DNA from: a virus
Taxonomy: Duplodnaviria > Heunggongvirae > Uroviricota > Caudoviricetes
Virus record (IMG/VR): IMGVR_UViG_2529293240_000021
Span: 1-13,448 of that record
Strand: one strand, 5' to 3'
DNA: 13,448 nt
Shown: piece by piece, positions 1 to 13,448 of the stretch
How the letters are laid out: each line of letters opens with the position of its first letter
Numbering within the stretch: the stretch's first letter is position 1
The notes under the pieces: generated by a model
Told to the model about the DNA's origin: nothing
The model's input: the letters and a program-made list of their open reading frames with translations, nothing else
Databases searched by the model: none
Translations under genes and position numbers: made by a program

Positions 1-1545
1 TCATTGAGCTTCTCGATCACTTCGCGCAACCAGTCCTCCGGCTCCACTTCGTTCTGTTTGCAGGTGACCAGCAGACTGTAGATGATCGCCGCACTTTCTC
101 CTCCCTTGTCTGAGCCGAAAAAGAGATAAGTTTTTTCTTCCAACCGCCACCGATCGTAACGCGTTTTCACCGATGTTGTTGTCTATTTCCACCCAGCCGT
201 CACGACAGAACTCGTTCAGCGCATTCCAGTGATTCAGGATATAGTCGAACGCCTTCGCCATCTCCGCATGTTTCGACAGCGTTTTCCTCTGCAACTGTAT
301 CCAGTCGTACAACGACTGCATCAACTGGACGCTTCTGGCTTTTCTGACTGCAAGCCGTTCCTCTGCCGGACTGCCACGTATCTCCGCTTCTATGTCGTAT
401 AACTCTGCTATCCGTCTGAGCGCTTCCTGAGTCATTTCTGTCGGACGGCGCACATCCTCGTCATGGATTTTTCGGCGGGCGTGGGCCAGGCACCCGGCTT
501 CCTTCACCCGGCCCGTTTCGTACAGTACGTTATAACCTGCATAGGCATCAGCCTGCAGTACGCCCTGATACTTTGCCAGGTGGAGCTGCGGATGTTCTCC
601 TTTGCGATCTGCCGAATACGCGAACCAGACGGCTGCCGGCAGGGATGAACCCGCATTACGATCATCCCTGACGTATACCCACAGACGACCCGTTTTCGTC
701 TTTCCGTTCCCCGGGGCCAGTACTTTCACCGGAGTGTCATCTGCGTGCACCTTTCCTGCCTCCAGAACATAGTCATTCAGCGCTATATACAGAGGACGGA
801 GTTTGTCTGCCATTTCTGATACCCAGCGCACCATGGTATTACGGCTCAGCTCCACGCCCTGTCGCGCGTATATTTCTGACTGGCGATATAAAGGGATATG
901 TTCCATATATTTGCTGACCAGGATCCGTGCAAGTAACCCTGCACTGGCATAACCGCGTTCGATCGGTTTAGGAGGAAGTGGTGCCTGAACGATGACATCA
1001 CACCGGCTACAGGCCAGTTTGGGACGTATGGTTTCGATAACTTTAAAGGCGGTATTAATGATATCCAGTTGCTCTGAGATTGTTTCCCCCATTTCTTTCA
1101 GAACACCTCCACAGGCCGGGCAACTGGTTTCAGCAGGCAGAAGGCGATGTGTCTCCCGGGGAAGTTCTGCCGGCAGCGGTTTTCGTGAAGATTTTCGTCC
1201 CGGGAATTCAGGCTTACTGGCGATCGGGTTTTCTGACGGGGGACTGGTGTCAGGTGAATCTGTGACTGACGATGCATCTTCCAGAAGATTTCTGGCTGTG
1301 TTCAGCCGGTTTTCCAGTTCCGACAGTCGTTTTTCTGCCTGTCGGATCTGATTTTCAAGCTTATGACGCTTTTTCTCTGAACTCTGGCCGAACAACATAC
1401 GACGCAACCTGTCGAGTTGCGCTTTCAGCCGTTCAATTTCCTGCTCATAGCCCGCGACCTGACAGGCATACTGTCGAAGCCGACTCTGTTGCTTACGCAA
1501 CATGGCTTTAAGCAGCTCAATATCATCGGGGAGTTCATTGTTCAT
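1..1545 (-). CDS. tnpC: IS66-family transposase TnpC; 3' end appears frameshifted (possible pseudogene)
   Basis: 514-aa ORF with IS66 transposase motifs (CxxC zinc-finger-like region, ...[36 protein letters not shown]). After GRKN the annotated frame becomes Arg-rich low complexity, while another frame encodes a protein-like tail ([43 protein letters not shown]) that runs off the window edge. Confidence 0.8.
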
Positions 1546-1564
1546 TCCCTTGTTTTATCACGGG

Positions 1565-1912
1565 TTATATCCGGATGCCAGGCCGTTCTGTCCGTTTGGG
1601 ATGTTGCCACGCGATCCCCTCCAGTAGCATGGATAACTGAGCTGGCGTCAGGTGCACTTTCCCTTCCCGGGTCACCGGCCAGACGAAGCGGCCCCGTTCC
1701 AGGCGTTTGGCGAACAGGCATAACCCGTCACGATCGGCCCACAGTATTTTCACCATTTTGCCACTGCGGCCCCGGAAGACGAAGATATGCCCGGAGAACG
1801 GGTCATCTTTCAGCGTGTTCTGCACCTTCGAAGCCAGGCCATTGAAGCCACAACGCATATCTGTGATGCCAGCGATGATCCAGATTTTGGTACCGGTCGG
1901 CAGCGTTATCAT
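1565..1912 (-). CDS. tnpB: IS66-family accessory protein TnpB (Orf2)
   Basis: 115-aa ORF (MITLPTGTKIWIIAGITDMRCGFNGLA...) directly downstream of tnpA with a 4-nt ATGA overlap; size and position match IS66 Orf2. Confidence 0.85.
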   Translation of the reverse strand: MITLPTGTKIWIIAGITDMRCGFNGLASKVQNTLKDDPFSGHIFVFRGRSGKMVKILWADRDGLCLFAKRLERGRFVWPVTREGKVHLTPAQLSMLLEGIAWQHPKRTERPGIRI

Positions 1913-2583
1913 CGGATACCCCCTTTCATTTCGCGGATTAGCGCCCGTAACAGTTCCGGAGTGAGAGGGTCAAACAGTTTTACCACACCTGATTTAAGAT
2001 GCAGCTCGCACCGTGGGACGTTTCCGGGAGCCCCCTCAGGGCGCTCATCATGCTTGTTACGCCAGAAGGGATTTGTAACTGGTCTGGTCGGCTCCGGCGT
2101 ATCAGTCAGAGCCACCGGGACAGGCATGCATTCCTGTATGTCATCATCGCTCAGTAAGCCGTCCTCGTACTGGCTTTTCCATTTAAACAGCAGGTTATTA
2201 TTGATATCGTGTTCTCTGGCGATCCGGGCAACAACAGCCCCAGGCTGTAACGCCTGCTTAGCCAGACGGACCTTAAATTCACGGCTATAGCTGGTTCGCC
2301 GTTCTTTTCGCCATGAGCCTTCTCTGATTTGAGGCTCTGTTAATTCCTTCTTTCTGTTGGCATAAAGGATGGCGTCAAGTTGAGCGAATGAAACTGAATC
2401 GGGCAATGGCCATGCGATACCGGATGCAAGAAATCGCTGAAAAAGCGTATGTATTGTGGAATGACTGAGACCCAGACGCTGAGCGATGGCCCGGATGGTC
2501 AGTTTATCTTCAAATCTTAAACGCAGGGCATCAGGCAAATAAGAACGGAAGCAGGGAATATCTTTTGTTGTCTGGGAATTCAT
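1909..2583 (-). CDS. tnpA: IS66-family accessory protein TnpA (Orf1), long form with extra N-terminal HTH region
   Basis: 224-aa ORF, first gene inside the IS end. C-terminal half (REFKVRLAKQALQPGAVVARIAREHDINNNLLFKWK) resembles the IS66 Orf1 HTH region; N-terminal half has a second HTH-like segment (TIRAIAQRLGLSHSTIHTLFQRF). Confidence 0.8.
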   Translation of the reverse strand: MNSQTTKDIPCFRSYLPDALRLRFEDKLTIRAIAQRLGLSHSTIHTLFQRFLASGIAWPLPDSVSFAQLDAILYANRKKELTEPQIREGSWRKERRTSYSREFKVRLAKQALQPGAVVARIAREHDINNNLLFKWKSQYEDGLLSDDDIQECMPVPVALTDTPEPTRPVTNPFWRNKHDERPEGAPGNVPRCELHLKSGVVKLFDPLTPELLRALIREMKGGIR

Positions 2584-2640
2584 CGTTCGTGTCCATCAAT
2601 ATAGATGGGCGCGATTGTTGCCAGACAGGACAATTTTCAC

Positions 2641-2665
2641 AAGACGTCGCTGATGGGGCGCTTAC
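2641..2665 (-). repeat. terminal inverted repeat of the IS66-family element (approximate extent)
   Basis: Minus-strand sequence GTAAGCGCCCCATCAGCGACGTCTT ending at 2665, about 80 bp upstream of the tnpA start. Inner boundary of the repeat is not determined. Confidence 0.65.
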
Positions 2666-2726
2666 TGTTGTTCTGAGGTGAGCATATCACCTCTGTTCAG
2701 GTGGCCAAATTCAGTGTGCCACTTCA
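2666..2726 (+). mobile_element. 61-bp terminal fragment of an IS3-family element (IS911-like right end), truncated by the IS66-family insertion
   Basis: Plus strand 2691-2726 reads CTCTGTTCAGGTGGCCAAATTCAGTGTGCCACTTCA, whose complement starts TGAAGTGGCACACTGAATTTGGCCACC. This is a TGA...TCA-type IS3-family terminal repeat that I recall as the IS911 right end. It abuts the IS66 terminus at 2665/2666. Confidence 0.5.
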
Positions 2727-2972
2727 AAAGCTGAAAATGATGCTCTTCGGCGCAAGCTTGATAATGGTGGTCGGGTGCTCGTCAAAGGAAAATGCCCTGT
2801 GCCATCCTCAGCCGAAACCTCCAGCGCCTCCGGCATGGGCAATGATGCCACCGTCGAACTCTCTCCAGTTGCTGGACGAAACGTTCTCGGTATCCGGGAC
2901 GGAATCATCAGCGACCAGACAGCATTGAGAATGCTTCAGGAGTACATCAGGATCCAATGCCTTGGGGGGTAG
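2727..2972 (+). pseudogene. Rz: Rz-like i-spanin, 3' fragment only (5' part removed at the IS boundary)
   Basis: Frame open from the IS end: KAENDALRRKLDNGGRVLVKGKCPVPSSAETSSASGMGNDA...QCLGG*. The KAENDALR and S-A-E-T-S-S-A-S-G-x-x-N-D-A segments resemble the C-terminal half of lambda Rz (AKAENDALRDD...REATTASGVDNAA...). No start codon or N-terminal TM segment is present. Confidence 0.6.
2737..2928 (+). CDS. Rz1: Rz1-like o-spanin lipoprotein, embedded in the +1 frame of Rz
   Basis: 63-aa ORF MMLFGASLIMVVGCSSKENALCHPQPKPPAPPAWAMMPP...: signal peptide with lipobox (VVGC) followed by a proline-rich stretch, closely resembling lambda Rz1 (MLKLKMMLCVMMLPLVVVGCTSK...KPPPPPAWIMQPP). Entirely inside the Rz frame. 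Confidence 0.55.
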   Translation: MMLFGASLIMVVGCSSKENALCHPQPKPPAPPAWAMMPPSNSLQLLDETFSVSGTESSATRQH

Positions 2973-3060
2973 CGGTAATTTTACTCATTATCCTTCAAAT
3001 CAGATTCTGTTGTCAGAGGAATGGGGGAAGCTGGATTCGCAAGAGCTTTTTATGGGCAGT

Positions 3061-3570
3061 TTAGCTAAAAAAAGGCAACACGAAGCTAAAACTACCAACA
3101 TAAAGTGCTGACCAGCTAGCAGCTGAAATCAGACTCACTGTATACACTTTCACTGGATGAAGTTGCAACATTCCTGCCACCAAAGGAGCAATGTAACGCA
3201 GCACGGCGATAAAGCGCGAAGTGAAAAGTATTGACACAGAGTTATTTTGCAACTGAAGGCGAACCCGTTCTATTGTATTGGAACGGCTCGATATTATACA
3301 TGCAAGTTGAGGGATATGCCCAATTATTATACCAAGATGGTAATTAACGATAGTACCGCACCATGCGCCACTCATGACCGTGATTCCAGCTTCCCATGGT
3401 GAAAGAGTCGTCTTGCTGACTGTAATTACAGTGGCCATCATAATTGATGCTGGTGGCAATATCGCCGAAATGAGTAAAGTGGATTTTGTGAACGCTATTA
3501 TAAAAAGAAGCCCCCATAGGCGATATGGATGAAGTACAAAATAGTTCATCAAAGCATTTATCCACTCCAT
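3061..3570 (-). CDS. YqaA/DedA-family inner-membrane protein (probable prophage moron)
   Basis: 169-aa hydrophobic ORF. Segments align by eye to E. coli YqaA (FLSATLLPGNSEVVLVAML vs LLISAILPPASIMMATVIT; HPWVLVLTATMGNSLGGLTNVILG vs SPWEAGITVMSGAWCGTIVNYHLG; SWMPVVGDLLCLLAGWMRIS vs SRFIAVLRYIAPLVAGMLQLH). RBS AAGGAAA lies 7 nt upstream of the ATG at 3570. Oriented opposite to the flanking phage genes. Confidence 0.65.
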   Translation of the reverse strand: MEWINALMNYFVLHPYRLWGLLFIIAFTKSTLLISAILPPASIMMATVITVSKTTLSPWEAGITVMSGAWCGTIVNYHLGIIIGHIPQLACIISSRSNTIERVRLQLQNNSVSILFTSRFIAVLRYIAPLVAGMLQLHPVKVYTVSLISAASWSALYVGSFSFVLPFFS

Positions 3571-3767
3571 CAATGTCTTTCCTTCTGTGAATTTTTCTTT
3601 GCTATTTAACCGTGATACGACTTAATTTAGGCTTAAACACCTTACATTTACAAGGTACTCCTGTGGGGGGCCCTGCCACGGAGCGTCGCAGGAGTGAGTG
3701 ATGAGGAAGAATTAAAGCAACCTATTGTGACAGGCAGCGATAACAGTAAATCACAGGAAGCATAATC

Positions 3768-4532
3768 ATGGCAAAACCGGACTGGGAGGCCATCGAATCG
3801 GCATACCGGGCCGGAGTCCTTAGCCTCCGTGATATAGGCGAGAAATACGGCGTTACAGAAGGGGCTATCAGGAAGAGGGCCAAAAAGCTTGGTTGGGCAC
3901 GCAGTGGCGGTACGCAGGTTTGCAAAAATGGTACGCAAAAAAGGAAAGTGCGTACCAGCAGAAAGCCTGCCATTACTGGCCTTACACAAAAAAGTACGCA
4001 ACTAAAAACAGAATCTACACCGGATACGAAACCGATACGCGGAATGCGTACCGATCCCCCGACTAACCCATTCCAACCCGGTAACCAGCAGGCATTAAAA
4101 CACGGTGGTTATGCCCGTCGCCTTCTGCTCAAAGATGAGGTGATAGAGGACGCTAAAGCGTTGACGCTCGAGGACGAATTATTTCGCCTTCGTGCTAACA
4201 ACCTTGTCGCTGCAGAGAATATTGGTCGGTGGTTGGTGTCGCTGGAAGATGCTAATGGGGACCAGGAAAGGAAGATGCTGATTGAAAATATCAGCGCCGC
4301 CGAGAAAGCAATGATGCGCAATACAGTTCGTATTGAGTCCATCGTTGGCACGCTTGCGACGGTAGGAAAAATATTTGCTGATACAGCCTACCGCAAGGCC
4401 GCCACTGATAAGGTGTCTCTGGAGGCTGATCGTCTTCGCCGTGATGCAGGTATTGATGATGGCAATGGAGAGCGTGACCTCAATGACTTCTACTCTGACA
4501 TCCAAACCGACGCTGAATCCGGCTTTACGTAG
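3768..4532 (+). CDS. terS: phage terminase small subunit (N-terminal HTH DNA-binding domain)
   Basis: 254-aa ORF with AGGAAG RBS 6 nt upstream. N-terminus MAKPDWEAIESAYRAGVLSLRDIGEKYGVTEGAIRKRAKKLGW is a typical small-terminase HTH. It sits immediately upstream of, and overlaps, the large-terminase ORF. Confidence 0.7.
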   Translation: MAKPDWEAIESAYRAGVLSLRDIGEKYGVTEGAIRKRAKKLGWARSGGTQVCKNGTQKRKVRTSRKPAITGLTQKSTQLKTESTPDTKPIRGMRTDPPTNPFQPGNQQALKHGGYARRLLLKDEVIEDAKALTLEDELFRLRANNLVAAENIGRWLVSLEDANGDQERKMLIENISAAEKAMMRNTVRIESIVGTLATVGKIFADTAYRKAATDKVSLEADRLRRDAGIDDGNGERDLNDFYSDIQTDAESGFT

Positions 4533-5150
4533 TTTCTGGACTATGCGGGCACGTAACAAAGTGCTTTATGGTGGTCGGTCATCGTCAAAATCATGGGATG
4601 CCGCTGGCATTGCCATATTTCTGTCGAATAAATACACCCTGCGTTTTTGTTGTGCCCGTCAGATCCAGAATAAAATCGAAGAGTCGGTGTATACCCTGCT
4701 CAAAATTCAGATAGACAGGTTTGGTCTGCGGCACCGTTTCCGTATTCTGAACAACAAAATCATTAACCGGGTTACTGGCTCGGAATTTGTTTTTTATGGA
4801 TTATGGCGCAACATCGAAGAAATTAAGTCACTGGAGGGGATCGATGTGTTGTGGCTGGAAGAAGCCCACGCACTGACGGAATACCAGTGGAAAATTCTGG
4901 AGCCAACGATCCGTAAAGAGGGTTCGGAATGCTGGTTCATATTCAACCCCGGACTTGTTACTGATTTCGTCTGGCGCAACTTCGTTGTTGATCCGCCCGA
5001 AGGCACTCTCATCCGCAAAATTAACTATGACGAAAATCCGTTTCTGTCTGACACCATGCTTAAGGTTATCGACGCGGCGCGACGCCGTGATCCGGATGGT
5101 TTTAAACATGTGTATGAGGGCGTTCCGGAGTCTGATGATGATGCGGCAAT
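4483..5150 (+). pseudogene. terL: terminase large subunit, N-terminal ATPase fragment, interrupted by IS2
   Basis: ORF with a Walker-A-like motif (VLYGGRSSSKSW) and Walker-B-like DVLWLEEAH. The reading frame runs into the IS2 left end and stops 6 codons later. Start chosen at ATG 4483 (GGAG 12 nt upstream); 4543 is an alternative. Confidence 0.85.
5146..5150. repeat. 5-bp target-site duplication (GCAAT), left copy, flanking IS2
   Basis: GCAAT immediately precedes the IS2 left terminus TAGACTGGCC at 5151; an identical copy follows the right terminus. Confidence 0.9.
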
Positions 5151-5241
5151 TAGACTGGCCCCCTGAATCTCCAGACAACCAGTATCACTTATTTAAGTGA
5201 TAGTCTTAATACTAGTTTTTAGACTAGTCATTGGAGAACAG

Positions 5242-5607
5242 ATGATTGATGTCTTAGGGCCGGAGAAACGCAGACGGCGTACCACACAGGAAAAGATCGC
5301 AATTGTTCAGCAGAGCTTTGAACCGGGGATGACGGTCTCCCTCGTTGCCCGGCAACATGGTGTAGCAGCCAGCCAGTTATTTCTCTGGCGTAAGCAATAC
5401 CAGGAAGGAAGTCTTACTGCTGTGGCCGCCGGAGAACAGGTTGTTCCTGCCTCTGAACTTGCTGCCGCCATGAAGCAGATTAAAGAACTCCAGCGCCTGC
5501 TCGGCAAGAAAACGATGGAAAATGAACTCCTCAAAGAAGCCGTTGAATATGGACGGGCAAAAAAGTGGATAGCGCACGCGCCCTTATTGCCCGGGGATGG
5601 GGAGTAA
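5242..5607 (+). CDS. insC: IS2 OrfA (InsC), HTH protein
   Basis: 121-aa [59 protein letters not shown]..., matching IS2 InsC; GGAG RBS upstream. Confidence 0.9.
5559..5565 (+). promoter_or_regulatory. -1 programmed ribosomal frameshift slippery heptamer (A AAA AAG) of IS2
   Basis: AAAAAAG lies in X XXY YYZ register with the insC frame, and insD is open in the -1 frame from this point (frame arithmetic: insC at position mod 3 = 1, insD at mod 3 = 0). Confidence 0.8.
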
Positions 5608-6470
5608 GCTTAGTCAGCCGTTGTCTCCGGGTGTCGCGTGCGCAGTTGCACGTCATTCTCAGACGAACCGATGACTGGATGGATGGCCGCCGCAGTCGTC
5701 ACACTGATGATACGGATGTGCTTCTCCGTATACACCATGTTATCGGAGAGCTGCCCACGTATGGTTATCGTCGGGTATGGGCGCTGCTTCGCAGACAGGC
5801 AGAACTTGATGGTATGCCTGCGATCAATGCCAAACGTGTTTACCGGATCATGCGCCAGAATGCGCTGTTGCTTGAGCGAAAACCTGCTGTACCGCCATCG
5901 AAACGGGCACATACAGGCAGAGTAGCCGTGAAAGAAAGCAATCAGCGATGGTGCTCTGACGGGTTCGAGTTCTGCTGTGATAACGGAGAGAGACTGCGTG
6001 TCACGTTCGCGCTGGACTGCTGTGATCGTGAGGCACTGCACTGGGCGGTGACTACCGGCGGCTTCAACAGTGAAACAGTACAGGACGTCATGCTGGGAGC
6101 GGTGGAACGCCGCTTCGGCAACGATCTTCCGTCGTCTCCAGTGGAGTGGCTGACGGATAATGGTTCATGCTACCGGGCTAATGAAACACGCCAGTTCGCC
6201 CGGATGTTGGGACTTGAACCGAAGAACACGGCGGTGCGGAGTCCGGAGAGTAACGGAATAGCAGAGAGCTTCGTGAAAACGATAAAGCGTGACTACATCA
6301 GTATCATGCCCAAACCAGACGGGTTAACGGCAGCAAAGAACCTTGCAGAGGCGTTCGAGCATTATAACGAATGGCATCCGCATAGTGCGCTGGGTTATCG
6401 CTCGCCACGGGAATATCTGCGGCAGCGGGCTTGTAATGGGTTAAGTGATAACAGATGTCTGGAAATATAG
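5565..6470 (+). CDS. insD: IS2 OrfB (InsD), DDE transposase catalytic domain; expressed as InsCD fusion by -1 frameshifting
   Basis: 301-aa [41 protein letters not shown]... matching IS2 InsD; begins at the slip site in the -1 frame relative to insC. Confidence 0.9.
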
Positions 6471-6481
6471 GGGCAAATCCA

Positions 6482-6486
6482 GCAAT
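6482..6486. repeat. 5-bp target-site duplication (GCAAT), right copy, flanking IS2
   Basis: GCAAT immediately follows the IS2 right terminus ...CAAATCCA at 6481. Confidence 0.9.
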
Positions 6487-7222
6487 CATCAAACTGTCTT
6501 GGATAGAAGCCGCAGTGGATGCGCACAAAACGTTAAATTTCGAACCCAGTGGAAGAAAGCGTATTGGCTTTGACGTGGCTGACAGTGGTACAGATAAGTG
6601 CGCTAACGTTTACCGTCACGGATCCGTTGTTTTCTGGGCCGACGAATGGAAGGCCAAAGAAGATGAATTACTGAAGAGCTGCCAGCGTACTTATCAGGCG
6701 GCGCTGGAGCGTGAAGCAGATATTGTTTACGACTCTATCGGTGTTGGTGCGTCTGCCGGTGCTAAATTCTCTGAAATTAACGCTGACCGGAAGAGCGAGA
6801 ACGCATACGCGCGACGTGTGAATTACCAGAGGTTTAACGCCGGTGCTGGTGTGCATGAGCCAGATGACGAGTACAACGGCATCCCCAACAAAGACTTTTT
6901 CGCAAATCTTAAGGCTCAGGCATGGTGGCTGGTGGCTGACCGTTTCAGAAATACGTTTAACGCCATTAACAACGGAGAACAGTATCCTGTGGATGAGCTG
7001 ATCAGCATAGATTCTCGTTGTCCGTTGCTTGAAAAGCTGAAACTGGAACTGACAACACCTCATCGTGATTTCGACCGTAACGGACGTGTGATGGTCGAAA
7101 GTAAAAAAGACCTCGCAAAACGCGAGATACCGTCACCAAACGTTGCTGATGCATTCATTATGGCCTTCGCGCCAATCGATACATCGCTGGATATCTGGGA
7201 ACAGCTGGGGAGACAGGCCTGA
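6482..7222 (+). pseudogene. terL: terminase large subunit, C-terminal (nuclease) fragment, separated from its 5' part by IS2
   Basis: Open frame continues directly from the IS2 right end to a stop at 7220-7222. Joining to 4483-5150 after removing IS2 and one GCAAT copy is in frame. The stop overlaps the portal start (TGATG). Confidence 0.85.
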
Positions 7223-8688
7223 TGGCACGAAACAAACAAGCCCTGCGGCGAACTGTGCAGGCCACAGCTGATGGTTATGAGAATTTTATTGCCCGCGTAG
7301 GGATGCAGACACCTAACCAGCACTCAGCATCCACCTACCGGGCTAATTTCACCAGTCGTAACCGCATGCTGGTGGAATGGTCCTATCGTTCATCCTGGAT
7401 CATCGGCGAAGCAGTCGATGCTATCCCGGATGATATGACCCGCAAAGGCATTCGCATCACTTCGGAAATTGATGCAAAAGATCGTGGCATTCTCGAATCA
7501 CAACTGGATGAGTTGCAAATCTGGGATGCGCTGAATGACGTGCTGAAATGGTCGCGCCTCTACGGCGGCGCGGTGGGTTTCATCATGATTGAGGGGCAGG
7601 CACCAATGACCCCGCTGCGACCCGAAACCATCGGTAAGGGCAAGTTTAAGGGGATTCTCCCGCTCGACCGCTGGATGGTCGACCCGGCACTGACCCGCCG
7701 CATTAAAGATATGGGGCCGGACCTGGGTAAACCTGAGTTTTACGATGTGGTGACCACAGCAACGGGAATTCCTGCCTGGCGCATTCATCACAGTCGCCTG
7801 ATTCGCTTTGATGGCGTCACGTTGCCATTTCAGCAGAAGATGACCGAGAACGAATGGGGAATGTCGGTTGTAGAGCGTATCTGGGATCGTCTTACCGCGT
7901 TCGACAGCGCTACTGTCGGCGCGGCGCAGCTGGTCTACAAGGCGCATTTGCGTACCTACAGCGTGGAGAAGCTACGCGAGCTTATCGCACTTGGTGGTCC
8001 TGCGTATGAAGCGTTGCTGAAGAATATCGACCTGATTCGACAGTTCCAGAGTAATGAAGGCATGACGCTCATGGACTCGCGGGATAAGTTTGAAACCCAT
8101 CAGTACAGCTTCAGTGGTCTGGATGACATCCTTTCGCAGTTTGCAGAACAGATTAGTGGCGCTGTTGGTATCCCACTGGTGCGGTTGTTCGGACAGTCCC
8201 CGAAAGGATTTTCTACCGGTGATGCAGACCTTGCCAACTATTACGATCGCATCAGTTCGTTGCAGGAGAGGCGTTTACGTCTTCCGGTGCGGCGGATACT
8301 GGACATCATGCATCGTTCGGAACTTGGCAAGCCGCTGCCGGACGATTTCACGTTTGAGTTTAACCCGCTCTGGCAAATGTCTGATGTCGATCGCTCAACG
8401 GTGGCGTTAAACACCACCAACGCAATCAGTACGGCGCTGGGTGATGGTCTGATGACACTGAAAGCCGCTATGACTGATTTGCGAGAAAATTCTGACGTAA
8501 CCGGCATCGGGGCATCCATTACCGACGAGGACATCGAGAATGCCGAAGATGAAGCGCCGCCCGGCATCGGCGAACCTGATGACGAACCGCAGGAGCCGTC
8601 AGGCGGAAATCCGGTATCGAACCAGCCTACGCAGGATAGCGAGGGCGGTCGGAGACATCGTAAATGGTCGCTACGATGGTTCAAATGA
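7222..8688 (+). CDS. phage portal protein
   Basis: 488-aa ORF immediately after the large terminase with translational coupling (TGATG), followed by a Mu F-like gene, as in the SPP1-type order terL-portal-gp7. Acidic C-terminal tail. Family assignment is by position, size and overall resemblance, not by search. Confidence 0.7.
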   Translation: MARNKQALRRTVQATADGYENFIARVGMQTPNQHSASTYRANFTSRNRMLVEWSYRSSWIIGEAVDAIPDDMTRKGIRITSEIDAKDRGILESQLDELQIWDALNDVLKWSRLYGGAVGFIMIEGQAPMTPLRPETIGKGKFKGILPLDRWMVDPALTRRIKDMGPDLGKPEFYDVVTTATGIPAWRIHHSRLIRFDGVTLPFQQKMTENEWGMSVVERIWDRLTAFDSATVGAAQLVYKAHLRTYSVEKLRELIALGGPAYEALLKNIDLIRQFQSNEGMTLMDSRDKFETHQYSFSGLDDILSQFAEQISGAVGIPLVRLFGQSPKGFSTGDADLANYYDRISSLQERRLRLPVRRILDIMHRSELGKPLPDDFTFEFNPLWQMSDVDRSTVALNTTNAISTALGDGLMTLKAAMTDLRENSDVTGIGASITDEDIENAEDEAPPGIGEPDDEPQEPSGGNPVSNQPTQDSEGGRRHRKWSLRWFK

Positions 8689-9322
8689 CAGTATCACGGA
8701 AATTATTGCGGCGCTGGAGCGTTACAGTGAAATCATCACCCCCTGGGCGACAAAGGTCGCGGAAAACTTTACTGCGGACCTAACCCGGCAGAACGAGAAA
8801 GTTTGGCGGCAACACAGCAAGAACATCAGTCGCGAGCTCCGCAATCTTGTGGAAAGCGCTCCTGTGGGCCAGGTGATGCAATCCATCATCGCCGAACAGG
8901 TCAAGTACATCAAATCTCTGCCTCTCGAGGCCGCAGACAGGGTGTACGACATCCAGAACAAAGCGATAGAGGCTGTTGTCACCGGTGGTCGGGCGGAGCA
9001 GTTTGCTAAAGAGATTGCATCTACCGGCGATGTTGCTAAGTCTAGGGCCGATCTGATTGCCCGAACGGAACTGGGAAGAGCAACGGGCGCGCTGGATATG
9101 GCCCGAGCGATAGCTATTGGCTCGGATGGTTATATTTGGCGTACAGCCGATGATGGCGATGTCCGAGATTCCCACGATCACATGAAAGGTAAATTCGTCC
9201 GCTGGGATTCACCTCCAACTTTGGACGGCATGACCGGCCACGCGGGCGAGCTGCCAAACTGCCGCTGCTATAAAGAGATCGTGTTTGTTCGCGTTCCATT
9301 CGCAATGAAAAGGGCAGCATAA
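8579..9322 (+). CDS. phage head morphogenesis protein, Mu F / SPP1 gp7 family
   Basis: C-terminal region GYIWRTADDGDVRDSHDHMKGKFVRWD...LPNCRCY is the characteristic Mu F-like domain signature. Start is uncertain (ATG 8579 chosen, overlapping the portal 3' end by about 110 bp). Confidence 0.75.
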   Translation: MTNRRSRQAEIRYRTSLRRIARAVGDIVNGRYDGSNDSITEIIAALERYSEIITPWATKVAENFTADLTRQNEKVWRQHSKNISRELRNLVESAPVGQVMQSIIAEQVKYIKSLPLEAADRVYDIQNKAIEAVVTGGRAEQFAKEIASTGDVAKSRADLIARTELGRATGALDMARAIAIGSDGYIWRTADDGDVRDSHDHMKGKFVRWDSPPTLDGMTGHAGELPNCRCYKEIVFVRVPFAMKRAA

Positions 9323-9325
9323 CCC

Positions 9326-10546
9326 ATGAAATACTTTTTTGAGACCAGGCTCGGGGAAACCCGATACCGCCTGGCTGACGGCTCGTTGCTGTGCAAAGAC
9401 GTGCCGATAGGACGAACAGGTAAGCAGCTCTATGGTGCTGATGACCTGCCAAAACTGAAACCCGATAAGTTCGGTGAAATAGTCGTCACGCGTTCTCCTG
9501 AGCAGGTATTCCATCCGGCCACGCTTGCCTCATTCGAAGGGATGAGCATCACGATCCTGCATCCTGAAGATGAAAACGGGAATGTGCGGCTGGTAAATCC
9601 CGAGAACTGGAAAGAGCTTGCTGTCGGGCACCTCCAGAATGTCCGGCGCGGGACGGGTGAGCAGTCTGATTTGATGCTGGCTGACCTTATCGTCAAAGAC
9701 GAAAGCGCCATTCAGCTTATCGAAGATGGCCTGCGCGAAGTGTCGTGCGGCTATGACGCGGAGTACGAGCAGACCGAGCCAGGTAAAGCCGAGCAGGTCG
9801 ATATTACCGGAAACCATGTGGCTCTTGTCCCTAAAGGCAGAGCCGGAAATCGTTGTGCAATTGGAGACAGAGACACAATGGCAAATCAAAAGAAAAACTG
9901 GTGGAACCGCATGCGTGCGGCCATCAAGACAGGAGATGCCGACACCATGAACGAACTGGTGGAGTCGGCTCCCGCATCGGTTACAGGAGATGAGGGGGAT
10001 TTGCCGCAGGGCGTTAATCTCAACATCAACCTGTCCCCGCAGCAACCACTACCGGACAAAGCACCAGAGATGGGCGGAGATCCAACCGGCGACAGTGATG
10101 ATGACCTCAAAACATTACTGAAAGCCCTGCTGGCTAAGCTGGAAAGAAATGCCACGGGCGATAACGATAATAAGCCTGACGATAATCCGACCGGTGACGG
10201 CGAGGACGATGAAGAGGAAACCACGATTACTGGTGACTCAGCCTGGCGTGCCGAAGTTATCGTTCCGGGTATCGATCTGAGCCGTAAGATGAAACCGACC
10301 GCGTTCAAACGCGAGGTTCTGGCTTCTGCTGACAAAACGCTGGTTCGCCAGATAGTCGGTGATGCGGATATCCGCAAATTACCGAAACAATCGGTCGACA
10401 TGGCGTTTAATGCCGTGTCTGAGGTTGCCAAAGGGCGAAACACCCGCGCCACCACCGGCGATGCACAGCGCCTAAACATGGGCATGACCAGTATCGCTTC
10501 CCTGAACAAACAAAACGCTGAATTCTGGGCAAACCGTAAAGGGTAA
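9326..10546 (+). CDS. putative capsid scaffolding / prohead maturation protein
   Basis: 406-aa ORF between the Mu F-like gene and the capsid genes. Globular N-terminal domain followed by a strongly acidic, low-complexity central segment with reiterated TGD motifs, then a basic C-terminus. Assignment is by position and composition only. Confidence 0.45.
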   Translation: MKYFFETRLGETRYRLADGSLLCKDVPIGRTGKQLYGADDLPKLKPDKFGEIVVTRSPEQVFHPATLASFEGMSITILHPEDENGNVRLVNPENWKELAVGHLQNVRRGTGEQSDLMLADLIVKDESAIQLIEDGLREVSCGYDAEYEQTEPGKAEQVDITGNHVALVPKGRAGNRCAIGDRDTMANQKKNWWNRMRAAIKTGDADTMNELVESAPASVTGDEGDLPQGVNLNINLSPQQPLPDKAPEMGGDPTGDSDDDLKTLLKALLAKLERNATGDNDNKPDDNPTGDGEDDEEETTITGDSAWRAEVIVPGIDLSRKMKPTAFKREVLASADKTLVRQIVGDADIRKLPKQSVDMAFNAVSEVAKGRNTRATTGDAQRLNMGMTSIASLNKQNAEFWANRKG

Positions 10547-10549
10547 AAA

Positions 10550-11056
10550 ATGAATAATGTATTTCTGTACCGGATGCCTGTTGGCATTGCCGGGGCTGTC
10601 TCTCGCCCGCAGGACTTAACCGTCGAACCGGTGGTCCTTAAATCCGATAACGCCTTCGCTGCCTATGGCCTGGCTGGTAAATACGATGATGACGGTTTTT
10701 TCGTGCCGCTGGCAGATGGTGATACCGCAGACAAGGTGAAGGGGATCTACGTGCGCCCTTATCCGACCACGTCGCAGCCGGACATGGTTCGCCAGGTGGG
10801 AACAGGCAAGAACTTCCCGGGCGACGCCATGAAGCGTGGCTACGTGACCGTTAATCTCGGTTCTGATTTTGATGCCAGCACTATCAAAAAAGGCGATCCG
10901 GTATACGTTGTCGTCTCCACTGATGAATCCATCAAAGTGCCGCTGGGTGGATTCATGTCCACGTCAGTCAGTGGCAAAAACGTGGTGCTGACCAACGCTG
11001 AATTCACAGGTGCCGGTGATGCTGACGGCAATGCAGAAATTTCCTGGAAGATTTAA
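10550..11056 (+). CDS. putative head decoration / cement protein
   Basis: 168-aa ORF tightly packed (3-bp gap) between the putative scaffold and major capsid genes; Gly/Val/Asp-rich, beta-rich-looking composition. Assignment is by position only. Confidence 0.35.
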   Translation: MNNVFLYRMPVGIAGAVSRPQDLTVEPVVLKSDNAFAAYGLAGKYDDDGFFVPLADGDTADKVKGIYVRPYPTTSQPDMVRQVGTGKNFPGDAMKRGYVTVNLGSDFDASTIKKGDPVYVVVSTDESIKVPLGGFMSTSVSGKNVVLTNAEFTGAGDADGNAEISWKI

Positions 11057-11067
11057 GGAACAGACGA

Positions 11068-12009
11068 ATGATTACTTTTGATCAGGCAACCGTTGACAGC
11101 TCTGGTGCCTTTCTCATCGGGGAGCTGGAGCGACTCGACCAGACGCTGAACCTGCCACTGGTGGGGTACACCTGGAGCCGCGATATTCAACTGCGTGAAG
11201 ACGTCTCCATCGCAGATGACATTTCCAGCTGGACGAATACCAGCTTCGCCGCTGCGGGTACTGGCGCAAATCCGAATGGAAAAAACTGGGTAGGCAAAGA
11301 CTCAACCGCTATTGCTGGCGTGAACGTGGATATCGGCAAATCCGGTAACCCGCTGAACCTGTGGGGGATGGAACTTGGCTGGACGGTCATAGAATTGCAG
11401 GCTGCTCAGCAGGTCGGCCGCCCGATTGATACGCAGAAGTATGACGGTATGCAACTGAAATGGCAGATGGATAACGATGAACAGGTATATGTTGGCGATT
11501 CCGCATTAAACCTGAAAGGCCTTGTTACCCTGGACGGCGTGCCTGTCAACAACGCTGCCAAAACGTGGGCAACCTCAACACCGGACGAAATCCGCGCAAG
11601 CATTAACCAGGTGCTGTCTGATGCGTGGGCCGCTTCTGGTTACTCTGTGGTTCCGCGTGATTTGCTGATCCCGCCTGAGCAGTTTGCTCTGTTGTCCAGC
11701 ATCATCGTTTCATCTGCAGGTAACCAGTCCCTGTTGACGTACCTTCAGACCAACACCATCAGCTATCACCAGAACGGTGTTCCGCTGAATATCCGCGCGG
11801 TTAAATGGCTGAAAGGCCGTGGTGTGGGGAATAAGGATCGCATGGTTGCGTACACCAACGATAAAAAATACGTCCGCTACCCGCTGGTTCCGCTTCAGAG
11901 CGTGCCGGTGCAGTATCGCGGTCTGTATCAGATCGTCACTTACTACGGCAAGCTGGGTGCAGTCGAGCCAGTGTACAAAGAAACCATTTCGTACGTTGAT
12001 GGCATTTAA
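11068..12009 (+). CDS. putative major capsid protein
   Basis: 313-aa ORF with strong RBS (AAGGAA 8 nt upstream), last gene of the head block and followed by a stable hairpin. Size and position fit a major capsid protein. Confidence 0.6.
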   Translation: MITFDQATVDSSGAFLIGELERLDQTLNLPLVGYTWSRDIQLREDVSIADDISSWTNTSFAAAGTGANPNGKNWVGKDSTAIAGVNVDIGKSGNPLNLWGMELGWTVIELQAAQQVGRPIDTQKYDGMQLKWQMDNDEQVYVGDSALNLKGLVTLDGVPVNNAAKTWATSTPDEIRASINQVLSDAWAASGYSVVPRDLLIPPEQFALLSSIIVSSAGNQSLLTYLQTNTISYHQNGVPLNIRAVKWLKGRGVGNKDRMVAYTNDKKYVRYPLVPLQSVPVQYRGLYQIVTYYGKLGAVEPVYKETISYVDGI

Positions 12010-12016
12010 CAGCCAC

Positions 12017-12037
12017 ATGGCCCCCTGGCGGGGCCAT
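12017..12037 (+). other. GC-rich stem-loop (9-bp stem ATGGCCCCC / GGGGGCCAT, 3-nt loop) just downstream of the capsid gene; no U-tract
   Basis: Perfect inverted repeat read directly from the sequence, starting 8 nt after the capsid stop codon and 14 nt before the next start codon. Confidence 0.45.
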
Positions 12038-12050
12038 TAAGGATGACCCG

Positions 12051-12249
12051 ATGGCAAAAAATGATGCAGTAATACACGTACATACCCCGTTTGTGCTCAC
12101 GCTTCCCGACGGTTCTCGGCGCGAGTTTGTTAAAGGCCGTCATGTTGTGGAGGAAGACGTTGCCACGCACTGGTTCACTCGTGCGCACGCGGAAGTATCC
12201 GTTGGCAAAGCCACAGACGCGCGTAACGAGGTAAAAAATGCCAAAGAAT
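12051..12249 (+). pseudogene. small phage ORF downstream of capsid gene, 3' end replaced by IS3-family insertion
   Basis: ORF with RBS (AAGGATG) begins at 12051. The IS terminus (TGAGGTGTACTGGCAATAGCGGACAC) begins at 12250 inside codon 67, so the last 14 codons of the 81-aa ORF are IS-derived. Confidence 0.4.
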
Positions 12250-12292
12250 TGAGGTGTACTGGCAATAGCGGACACTACCATTTGTTCTTTTT

Positions 12293-13111
12293 TTAAGCAG
12301 CCATCTGATGATATTTTTCCCTGAAGGCTGCCGGGGAGATATTCCCCAGACGAGAGTGACGACGCTGACGATTGTAGAAAATCTCAATGTATTCCCGTAT
12401 TACTGAGATGGCTTCATCCCGGTTATTAAAACGATAGTGGCTCAGGCTCTCATTTTTCAGAGTTCCCCAGAAGCTTTCCATCGGAGCGTTGTCGTAACAG
12501 TTACCTTTACGCGACATTGATGTTTTCAGACCAAACTGCTCCTGTATGACCCGGTAATCGTATGCGCAGTACTGTGAACCTCGATCAGAGTGGTGGATTA
12601 GCCCGGCAGGTGGGCGCTGGCTCCTGAGCGCCATAAACAGGGCTTTACCTGTCAGCTCTTTTGTCACGCGCTCTCCCATGGCGTAGCCGACAATTTCGCA
12701 CGTATAAACATCTTTGATGCCAGCGAGGTACAACCATCCCTCCTGTGTGGCAACATACGTCAGGTCCGCCACCCAGACCTGATTTGGTGCTGTAGGAGCG
12801 AACGTCTGGTTCAGCAGATTTGGCGCAACTGGCAGATTGTGGTTCGGGTTCGTAGTCGCTCTGAACTTGCGTTTCTGCTTACAGCGTAGCCTTAGCTCCT
12901 TACGAAGACGTGCCAGTCGGTCACGACCAACGATGATGCCATTCTCTGCCAGCTCCGTCTGGAGCCGCCGGGTTCCATATGTTTCGCGAGTGCGGATATG
13001 TGCCACCTTAATCTCCAGTTTTAGCCGCTCATCACTTTGTTTTCTGTCTGAGGGTTCATGCTGTACCCAGTTGTAATAACCGCTCCTGGATACACCAAAT
13101 ACCTGACACAT
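12293..13111 (-). CDS. IS3-family transposase OrfB (DDE catalytic domain)
   Basis: 272-aa ORF with integrase-core motifs (VWVADLTY, HHSDRGSQY, CYDNAPMESF). Its frame stays open upstream to the A-run at 13191-13197. Confidence 0.85.
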   Translation of the reverse strand: MCQVFGVSRSGYYNWVQHEPSDRKQSDERLKLEIKVAHIRTRETYGTRRLQTELAENGIIVGRDRLARLRKELRLRCKQKRKFRATTNPNHNLPVAPNLLNQTFAPTAPNQVWVADLTYVATQEGWLYLAGIKDVYTCEIVGYAMGERVTKELTGKALFMALRSQRPPAGLIHHSDRGSQYCAYDYRVIQEQFGLKTSMSRKGNCYDNAPMESFWGTLKNESLSHYRFNNRDEAISVIREYIEIFYNRQRRHSRLGNISPAAFREKYHQMAA

Positions 13112-13160
13112 CGCTTCAATGGGAAATTGTTGTCGCCATTGTTCGATTAACGCGTATTTT

Positions 13161-13448
13161 TCAGCGACTCCTGTGCAAAATACGCTGTTGCTTTTTTAAT
13201 ATATCTCGCTCAAGGCGAGCTTCATTTAACGCCTTACGCAGTTGCAGAATTTCAGATTCCAGTTCAGCCACCGTGCGGGAACCAGGAGTACCGAGCCCTT
13301 TTCTGGCGGCGGTAACCCATTGTCCTAAAGTGCCTTCAGGAAGGGATAATCGGGAAGCGCCTTCACTGATCGAAGGTTGATTTTCAAGAACCGTTCTGAC
13401 AGCTTCGGCTTTGAACTCTTTAGAGTAACGTTGGGTTTTTCTGCTCAT
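13161..13448 (-). CDS. IS3-family OrfA (HTH / leucine-zipper protein)
   Basis: 95-aa ORF starting at the last base of the window (ATG at 13446-13448, minus strand): MSRKTQRYSKEFKAEAVRTVLENQ...; C-terminal tail may be altered (see findings). Confidence 0.85.
   Translation of the reverse strand: MSRKTQRYSKEFKAEAVRTVLENQPSISEGASRLSLPEGTLGQWVTAARKGLGTPGSRTVAELESEILQLRKALNEARLERDILKKQQRILHRSR
13191..13197 (-). promoter_or_regulatory. A6G slippery run at the orfA/orfB junction of the IS600-like element (frame relation atypical)
   Basis: Minus strand reads TTA AAA AAG in the orfA frame, but orfB lies in the +1 frame, not the -1 frame, relative to orfA by coordinate arithmetic. Confidence 0.55.

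Follow-up and report, generated by a model that had tools for sequence, protein, structure and literature searches.

IS2 interrupts the terminase large-subunit gene of a decayed lambdoid prophage in Shigella flexneri

The window analysed here, meaning the whole 13,448-bp stretch of DNA, holds a decayed lambdoid prophage common to many Shigella flexneri genomes. Prophage DNA occupies only positions 2727-12249, and IS2, IS600, IS911 and ISSfl3 are all present within these 13.4 kb. An apparently intact small terminase subunit gene (terS, 3768-4532, plus strand, 254 aa; PHROG 370 'terminase small subunit', E=7.5e-95) overlaps the start of the large-subunit gene, terL, by 50 nt, and an intact portal gene (7222-8688, plus strand, 488 aa; PHROG 146, E=1.4e-174) lies directly 3' of terL. 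This terS-terL-portal order is the same in the window, in intact Escherichia coli prophages and in Klebsiella phage GZ7. The terS product has no amino acid differences from that of the E. coli FDAARGOS_944 prophage, the portal protein has none from the E. coli allele, and the surviving head genes and a DedA-family gene show 0-1 aa changes relative to the intact prophages. terL itself is present in two parts on the plus strand, separated by IS2. The 5' part (4483-5150; nt 1-668, or codons 1-222 and the first 2 nt of codon 223) contains the whole ATPase domain and the 3' part (6487-7222; nt 669-1404) the RNaseH-like nuclease domain. In the intact E. coli gene PGAP places the start at the equivalent of position 4483, and there is an alternative in-frame ATG at 4543.

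The interrupting element is a complete, 1331 bp IS2 (5151-6481, plus strand), with the same direction of transcription as terL. It starts with TAGACTGGCCCCC... at 5151 and ends with ...GGGGCAAATCCA at 6481, opening with TAGACTGG and closing with AAATCCA, so that the termini read 5'-TA...CA-3'. The ends form imperfect inverted repeats, with 42 nt at the left (IRL, ~5151-5192) aligned to 41 nt at the right (IRR, ~6441-6481) with one gap, in agreement with the imperfect terminal repeats published for IS2, an IRL of 42 bp and an IRR of 41 bp (PMC3299598). Both plus-strand ORFs are full length and score above curated NCBIfam cutoffs, orfA (InsC/TnpA repressor, 121 aa, 5242-5607) matching NF006928 over residues 1-121 of 121 with 276 bits (cutoff 229) and orfB (InsD/TnpB catalytic part, 301 aa, 5565-6470) matching NF006918 over residues 1-301 of 301 with 728 bits (cutoff 597). 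An earlier note on this DNA, made from the sequence alone, had named the element as IS2, and these matches establish that identity. The two ORFs overlap at an A6G frameshift window, AAAAAAG at 5559-5565. Every sequence feature of this copy is intact and it is 99.8% identical to the IS2 copy of E. coli FDAARGOS_943. In length, TA...CA ends, A6G -1 frameshift overlap and 5-bp duplication it is the same as the IS2 (IS3 family) known from E. coli and Shigella; nothing of note differs, and this is a standard copy.

The pentanucleotide GCAAT flanks the element on the left (5146-5150) and on the right (6482-6486), the two copies proving identical when re-read directly, as the earlier note had them. 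The left junction is GATGATGCGGCAAT|TAGACTGG, the repeat stops at 5 bp with a different sixth base, and the chance of a given 5-mer recurring at a fixed place is ~1/1024. With 5151-6486 excised in silico, the reading frame that starts at 4483 is 1404 nt long and encodes 467 aa, stop codon excluded. Uninterrupted E. coli genes have exactly this length, contain GCAAT once, and are 2 nt and 1 aa apart from the excision product. Because intact alleles hold a single GCAAT and excision restores a near-identical gene, the GCAAT pair is a true duplication. The exact reconstruction that had been proposed from this duplication is thereby vindicated, although the size of the rejoined ORF, first put at ~468 aa, is 467 aa once the stop is no longer counted. 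The empty site, which was to be sought in related genomes, does exist. An uninterrupted terL homolog is present in 118 of 5426 E. coli genomes, in 40 of the 118 at 95% identity or more, and the E. coli FDAARGOS_944 and VL40 prophages, with 99.9% nucleotide identity in terL and the same gene order, represent that site. They are without IS2 in terL and retain the lysis cassette and the genes past the capsid gene.

The rejoined ORF belongs to the PBSX/Terminase_3 family. It scores 142.5 bits with TIGR01547 (cutoff 105.05; residues 25-425), matches Pfam Terminase_3 (PF04466) over residues 24-213 (E=3.9e-38, 131.5 bits versus 23.2) and PHROG 3717 and PHROG 2 (terminase large subunit), and so is a large terminase, as had been supposed. 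With Pfam Terminase_3C (PF17288) residues 329-451 reach 20.8 bits, under the gathering score of 26.7, but the nuclease domain is strongly covered by PDB 8DKR_B (query 213-453, E=1.3e-66), and the nuclease-domain chains 5C10/5C12 of Sf6 gp2 match query 212-449 (E ~1e-24; 5C10, 1.9e-24). Sf6 gp2 (PDB 4IDH, 5C10-5C15), a member of the same family, is colinear with the rejoined ORF over query 10-449 (4IDH, E=9.4e-79) and has the same architecture, ATPase followed by nuclease, and the same place between the small terminase and portal genes. Its GGRGSGKS and ICWVEEA align, respectively, with the Walker A motif GGRSSSKS (residues 30-37) and the Walker B-like VLWLEEA of the rejoined terL, and nuclease acidic residues lie in FDVADSG, YDSIGVG and NVADAF. 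The window gene is interrupted, unlike that of Sf6, and has Ser in place of the Gly before Lys in Walker A. That substitution is shared with the deposited Klebsiella phage GZ7 and is therefore probably a natural variant that functions. The Klebsiella phages GZ7, Mulock and RCIP0034 encode an uninterrupted TerL, without IS2, with 92-93% protein identity to the rejoined ORF; across 13 Klebsiella phage records the identity is 92.7-93.5% over 95-100% of the length, and the junction-spanning residues DDDAAIIKLSW are invariant in phage GZ7. With the Sf6 gp2 alignment, these phage proteins confirm a match to large terminases over the full length.

As the gene now stands, IS2 occupies codon 223 of 467, at the boundary of the ATPase and nuclease domains. 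Codon 223 spans the terL/IS2 junction and still encodes Ile, and a stop is reached 16 nt into IS2. The upstream ORF (4483-5166, plus strand) therefore encodes 227 aa, 223 native residues followed by RLAP read from IS2 and a stop (ending ...DDDAAIRLAP), which upholds the description of an ATPase-bearing N-terminus that stops shortly inside the element. The downstream ORF had been described as lacking an independent start, but IS2 supplies one. The frame is open from 6452 and has an ATG at 6455, inside the right end of IS2, from which a chimeric ORF of 255 aa (6455-7222, plus strand) reads MSGNIGANP, nine IS2-encoded residues, and then AIIKLS..., native residues 222-467. Public gene callers annotate this ORF, its exact product occurring in 95 blocks of public assemblies. 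The two 'terminase' ORFs called in hundreds of Shigella assemblies, including this IS2-fused ORF, are the halves of one pseudogene. The ATPase and nuclease are not joined in one polypeptide, the break falling at codon 223, and the locus is a pseudogene of the PBSX/Terminase_3 family and not a working member of it.

The earlier note had also called the IS2 insertion a single, clean lesion. This does not hold for the prophage: ISSfl3 with an IS911 stub breaks its lysis gene Rz, and IS600 makes a further cut past the capsid gene. ISSfl3 (IS66 family; 1-2665, minus strand) extends beyond the left edge of the window and encodes TnpC (1-1545), TnpB (1565-1912) and TnpA (1909-2583), all on the minus strand and recognised by NCBIfam IS66 models; the copy is 99.8% identical to an annotated ISSfl3 and has its terminus, ...GGGGCGCTTAC, at 2665. 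A 61-bp terminal stub of IS911 (2666-2726, minus strand) adjoins it and marks the break in Rz; a full IS911 is present at this site in M90T-type loci. What is left of Rz is its 3' part (2727-2972), within which the embedded Rz1 (2737-2928) remains. A start of the prophage homology at 2718 was considered and rejected as a spurious extension containing 3 mismatches, the true boundary being 2727, after the IS911 stub. IS600 (12250-13448, minus strand) extends beyond the right edge of the window and cuts the head module beyond the capsid gene, truncating a STY1053-family gene at codon 67 and leaving just the first 12 nt of a DUF4054 gene, where the prophage homology ends. Together these insertion sequences have cut the prophage down to a ~9.5-kb terS-to-major-capsid remnant. 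A complete prophage would have whole lysis, head and tail modules; here Rz is broken, the head module stops at IS600 (12250), and no tail genes were found beyond the head module in any related locus compared. With lysis and tail functions also gone, the claim that loss of terL abolishes packaging is moot for phage production.

The exact 227-aa truncated product, including its four IS2-encoded residues, is encoded in 282 blocks of public assemblies. Carriers with names available from papers or record titles are all S. flexneri (serotypes 3a, 3b, 5a and Y), except for one 4.44-Mb record deposited as E. coli (ECMA0423), which has the identical 32-nt junction seen in S. flexneri SFBU1023. The exact terL/IS2 junction is a handy marker of S. 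flexneri lineage. If 'probably recent', as the insertion had been described, is taken to mean strain-specific, it is contradicted by the occurrence of the identical junction in numerous S. flexneri strains belonging to several serotypes, the age being judged here from sharing among named strains and not from phylogeny. Published surveys give the background. Five insertion sequences, IS1, IS2, IS4, IS600 and IS911, have expanded throughout Shigella, with substantial expansion before the diversification of S. flexneri (Hawkey et al. 2020, PMC7373316), many insertion sites are common to S. flexneri lineages, and insertion sequences serve as recombination substrates (PMC7373316; Seferbekova et al. 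2021, PMC8072062). A literature search found no paper naming this particular terL insertion.

No end-to-end match to the window was found among 22 Shigella or E. coli loci, the nearest differing by an extra insertion sequence, by a 139-236-bp deletion beside ISSfl3, or by an inverted ISSfl3. In some strains (loci L004, L005, L007, L008, L009, L012 and L021) the IS2 flanks are mismatched and the terL halves lie apart; the IS2 copy in terL has later recombined with other IS2 copies, parting the two halves. It is a documented recombination point that explains differing gene orders among strains. The GCAATC that follows IS2 in rearranged strains was evaluated as a retained duplication and rejected, being produced by BLAST extension over CAATCC in an unrelated flank.

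These observations almost certainly reflect the splitting of a prophage terL by insertion of IS2, as one of several insertion-sequence hits on the prophage. The IS2 would have transposed into the terL of a lambdoid prophage, probably in an ancestor of much of S. flexneri, its timing relative to diversification resting on the sharing described above. Movement of IS2 is by copy-out, paste-in, by way of figure-of-eight and minicircle forms, presumably here too, and a staggered 5-bp cut at integration would have generated the GCAAT duplication. By landing in codon 223 (of 467), oriented as terL is, the element has left a 227-aa, ATPase-only fragment and deprived the nuclease half of its natural start. 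Because a large terminase needs both activities on one polypeptide docked on the portal, the locus should be unable to cut or package DNA, a loss that we infer, soundly, from general terminase biology. The insertion itself was most likely neutral. Nothing contradicts the structural account: element, boundaries, duplication, empty site, homology, distribution and the other lesions are all directly documented. The case is textbook insertion-sequence pseudogenisation in the course of ordinary prophage decay, of a kind already known; it adds a clean example of insertion sequences eroding Shigella prophages and has little weight beyond annotation.

It is unlikely that the insertion was instead selected, with the terL knockout 'grounding' the prophage so that the host keeps its cargo without the risk of induction. 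Candidate cargo exists in the DedA-family gene in the window and in the ipaH or tRNA genes that lie close by in related strains, the lesion has been kept across S. flexneri serotypes, and the head and DedA-family genes remain only 0-1 aa from those of intact prophages. S. flexneri is, however, too young for the absence of further decay to be informative. The same gene has also been hit independently in E. coli FDAARGOS_943, by an IS2 located 215 bp upstream with its own 5-bp duplication, GCTGG, but one extra hit is close to chance, with a few tenths of a hit expected by our own estimate from 118 carrier genomes, a few to ~20 IS2 copies in each, a 1.4-kb target and a 5-Mb genome. Across these genomes, insertion sequences have struck hundreds of loci (PMC7373316), and since the lysis and tail modules are destroyed as well, terL need not have had any special role. 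A broader version, in which one or both domain ORFs are expressed and retained for a host function, for example as a free-standing nuclease or ATPase directed at the DNA of incoming phages, with the repeated IS2 hits reflecting selection, appears very improbable.

Still less credence attaches to the idea that the halves are separate working ATPase and nuclease proteins, either as a split terminase or with the nuclease half co-opted. The break does fall at the domain boundary with each domain nearly whole, many assemblies carry both ORFs unaltered, and IS2 provides the in-frame ATG at 6455. There is, however, no convincing Shine-Dalgarno-like purine run before that ATG, and a promoter/terminator scan of 5000-6700 detected no promoter-like site directed outward from the right end of IS2. 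Outward expression of the 3' half was accordingly rejected, the sole promoter hit in 5000-6700 being on the minus strand and at chance level. The 3' half also begins ~10 residues after the start of the nuclease-chain alignment (query residue 212-213), the parting of the halves by IS2 recombination, seen in many strains, shows no sign of constraint, and in a prophage without lysis and tail genes packaging would have no product. Isolated terminase domains, moreover, keep partial activities but are not known to package DNA in trans.

That IS2 is an assembly artefact, a collapsed or misplaced repeat, or that the flanking GCAAT is coincidental, has almost no probability, for although IS2 is multicopy and repeats are well known for causing misassembly, many complete assemblies produced independently by different laboratories on different platforms show the same junction on both sides, and excision restores an ORF only 2 nt from intact alleles.

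An insertion element of 1,331 bp occupies positions 5151-6481 of the window, beginning with TAGACTGGCCCCCTGAATC... and ending with ...ATATAGGGGCAAATCCA. Direct reading of positions 4300-7400, supplemented by a script, confirmed these boundaries, which the earlier note had proposed, and the flanking copies of GCAAT at 5146-5150 and 6482-6486. The repeat stops at 5 bp; the sixth base differs. The TnpA and TnpB of the element match the IS2-specific NCBIfam models over their full lengths, with 276 and 728 bits (curated cutoffs 229 and 597), respectively, an A6G frameshift window lies at 5559, and alignment of the ends revealed imperfect inverted repeats of 42 and 41 nt with TA...CA termini. These are documented features of IS2, which transposes by a two-step pathway through a figure-of-eight and a minicircle (PMC3299598). 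The element is 99.8% identical to another IS2 copy, has the same orientation as the gene it interrupts and, judged by its sequence, is a standard and apparently intact IS2. Removal of 5151-6486 fuses 4483-5150 in frame with 6487-7222, and the predicted rejoining, to an ORF of ~468 aa, was borne out with 1,404 nt that encode 467 residues plus a stop. As it now stands, the upstream ORF (4483-5166) ends ...DDDAAIRLAP*; codon 223 (ATT) spans the junction with its Ile retained, followed by four IS2-encoded residues and the stop. The window shows integration of a standard IS2, with a 5-bp staggered target cut, inside codon 223 of terL, and as both copies of GCAAT are retained, it represents the original insertion state.

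The reconstructed protein has, as anticipated, the profile of a large terminase over its full length. It matches TIGR01547 (PBSX-family large terminase) at residues 25-425 with 142.5 bits (cutoff 105), Pfam Terminase_3 at residues 24-213 (E=3.9e-38), PHROG families 3717 and 2 (both terminase large subunit) and, weakly and under the gathering score, Terminase_3C at residues 329-451. It is colinear with the full-length structure of Sf6 gp2 (4IDH; query 10-449, E=9.4e-79), and 92.7-93.5% identical over 95-100% of its length to TerL in 13 Klebsiella phage records, including GZ7, Mulock and RCIP0034; in the alignment with GZ7 TerL, the junction-spanning residues DDDAAIIKLSW are invariant. The gene is flanked by terS, encoding the small terminase (3768-4532; PHROG 370, E=7.5e-95), and by the portal gene (7222-8688; PHROG 146). 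Alignments with solved nuclease-domain chains start at query residue 212-213 (8DKR_B, E=1.3e-66; 5C10 and 5C12, E about 1e-24), which places IS2, in codon 223, at the boundary of the ATPase and nuclease domains, with Walker A and Walker B 5′ and the acidic nuclease residues 3′ of the element. The Walker A sequence, GGRSSSKS (residues 30-37; 4570-4593), has a Ser before the Lys whereas Sf6 gp2 and the canonical motif have Gly. As the intact E. coli alleles and Klebsiella phage GZ7 share this sequence, it is probably a natural variant that is tolerated. The start of terL is ambiguous, with two candidate ATG codons within 4483-4545. In E. coli, PGAP uses the ATG at 4483, a start that lies 50 nt inside terS; the in-frame ATG at 4543 would give a 447-aa TerL, and the Klebsiella phage Mulock match starts at residue 20. 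No obvious Shine-Dalgarno sequence accompanies either ATG.

A search of 5,426 complete E. coli genomes with 4483-7222 identified many records in which the two terL flanks are contiguous, in genes of exactly 1,404 bp annotated as PBSX family phage terminase large subunit. The excised sequence, used to query the same collection, identified an uninterrupted homolog in 118 of the 5,426 genomes, in 40 of these at 95% identity or more. Empty sites are therefore present in related genomes, and the reconstruction differs from the alleles of strains FDAARGOS_944 and VL40 by only 2 nt and 1 aa each. With this, the full-length terminase match and the identical 5-bp repeats, the central claim of the earlier note stands: the observation is confirmed and its interpretation supported in part. 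The event is of a known kind, in which an insertion sequence turns a Shigella prophage gene into a pseudogene. VL40 and FDAARGOS_944 have the closest intact prophages (99.8-99.9% identical); both also carry IS600, and FDAARGOS_944 has ISSfl3 on a 261-kb plasmid, which suggests that they may be enteroinvasive E. coli or Shigella-like in some other way. E. coli FDAARGOS_943 has an independent IS2 in the same gene (NZ_CP065615.1; 6454-7784 of the retrieved locus), 215 bp upstream, in the same orientation and with its own 5-bp duplication, GCTGG (equivalent to 4932-4936). Such recurrence could reflect selection for disabling the prophage through terL but, as one repeated IS2 event in this gene is roughly within chance expectation, selection appears improbable. 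The FDAARGOS_943 prophage additionally has an IS1 and an internal stop in the head-morphogenesis gene.

For DNA packaging, the ATPase and nuclease must belong to a single polypeptide that assembles on the portal and, given this requirement, general terminase biology predicts that a split terL would neither cut nor translocate DNA. Contrary to the assertion that the downstream frame has no independent start, this frame, open from 6452, contains an ATG at 6455, within the right end of IS2; it begins a 255-aa ORF (6455-7222) in which nine IS2-encoded residues (MSGNIGANP) precede AIIKLS.... Expression of the 3′ half from this ATG is unlikely, because a promoter and terminator scan of 5000-6700 found no promoter-like site reading out of IS2 and no ribosome-binding sequence was found upstream of the ATG. 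That the two halves constitute a functional split terminase, or provide a co-opted domain, is very improbable; the expression signals are absent and the halves are freely separated in many strains. The ATG frame in the IS2 right end (6455-6481) is open through the terminus (MSGNIGANP...), and gene callers yield chimeric ORFs wherever it continues, as a fusion with the 3′ half of terL in the window and, in M90T-type strains, as the same kind of fusion of a partial IS2 end with the 5′ part of Rz (L010, a related locus, 6750-6998). These ORFs are likely annotation artefacts.

Hundreds of public genomes contain the feature. The exact 227-aa product of the upstream ORF, diagnostic of this junction because it includes the IS2-derived RLAP tail, occurs in 282 blocks of public assemblies and the exact 255-aa chimeric ORF in 95. 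S. flexneri SFBU1023 shares an identical 32-nt junction, as does a genome of 4.44 Mb that bears the label E. coli ECMA0423. As many independent assemblies carry the same junction, an assembly artefact is excluded. Among the carriers, papers identify S. flexneri M90T and NCTC 9728 (5a), 71-2783 and AUSMDU00022017 (3a) and 89-141 (Y); for SFL1520 (3b, CP032513) and CP066809, the link to S. flexneri comes only from titles and abstracts of papers citing these accessions. CP000266 is strain 8401. The insertion is thus shared by several serotypes and probably descends from a common ancestor, in line with the report that IS2 belongs to a group of five insertion sequences that expanded in every Shigella, with substantial expansion before S. 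flexneri diversification "hundreds of years ago" (Hawkey et al. 2020, PMC7373316). The lesion had been considered probably recent, which holds only in that the terL halves show no further decay; its sharing across serotypes argues against a strain-specific event.

In six related loci (L004, L005, L007, L008, L009 and L012, around 11999), IS2 joins the 5′ half of terL to unrelated early genes of another lambdoid prophage, next to an integrase gene and ybhC, the right flank of IS2 being CAATCCCGGC... instead of the 3′ half of terL. In strain 89-141 (L021, around 6709), the 3′ half with its GCAAT lies to the right of an IS2 whose left flank (...ACAATTAAT) is unrelated chromosomal DNA. Mismatched flanks are a signature of homologous recombination between IS2 copies, and these indicate that IS2 copies recombined after the terL insertion in these S. 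flexneri strains.

The insertion in terL is clean, as the earlier note held, yet it is not the single lesion, since Rz is cut by an IS911 stub and ISSfl3, and the head module by IS600. Homology to intact prophages is confined to 2727-12249, and the window prophage is a remnant of roughly 9.5 kb that is not one mutation short of viability. ISSfl3 (IS66 family; 1-2665, minus strand) directly abuts a terminal 61-bp stub of IS911 (2666-2726) inside the Rz lysis gene, of which only the 3′ part (2727-2972) and the embedded Rz1 are left. M90T-type strains have a complete IS911 at the Rz site, with ISSfl3 inverted relative to the window and farther left, and other strains have 139-236-bp deletions adjoining ISSfl3; the site is a nested, rearranged and strain-variable insertion-sequence junction. 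IS600 (12250-13448) ends the prophage homology at 12249, cuts a STY1053-family gene at codon 67 and spares only the first 12 nt of the DUF4054 gene that follows. Beyond IS600, every related locus retrieved continues into unrelated DNA, with either Mu-like transposase genes or a DUF4376 gene plus ipaH, and none has tail genes; the ipaH-type effector gene after DUF4376 in related S. flexneri encodes LRR plus NEL. The genes that remain between the insertion sequences (DedA, terS, portal, head morphogenesis, DUF2213, cement protein and major capsid) are intact, and their products differ from those of the E. coli prophage by 0-1 aa. The DedA-family membrane protein (3061-3573, minus strand, 170 aa), encoded between the lysis genes and terS, is identical in the window and the E. 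coli prophages (WP_011069285.1), and its gene looks like phage cargo. The loci from CP026810.1 (L006 and L016) and AMKF01000016.1 (L025) have the same IS2 junction and IS600 boundary as the window and lysis genes without ISSfl3 or IS911, which suggests that IS2 and IS600 inserted before the lysis-gene elements. The DUF2213 ORF is shorter in all three (371 vs 406 aa), as is the head-morphogenesis ORF in L006 and L016 (152 vs 247 aa); some of the indels in these loci may be sequencing errors.
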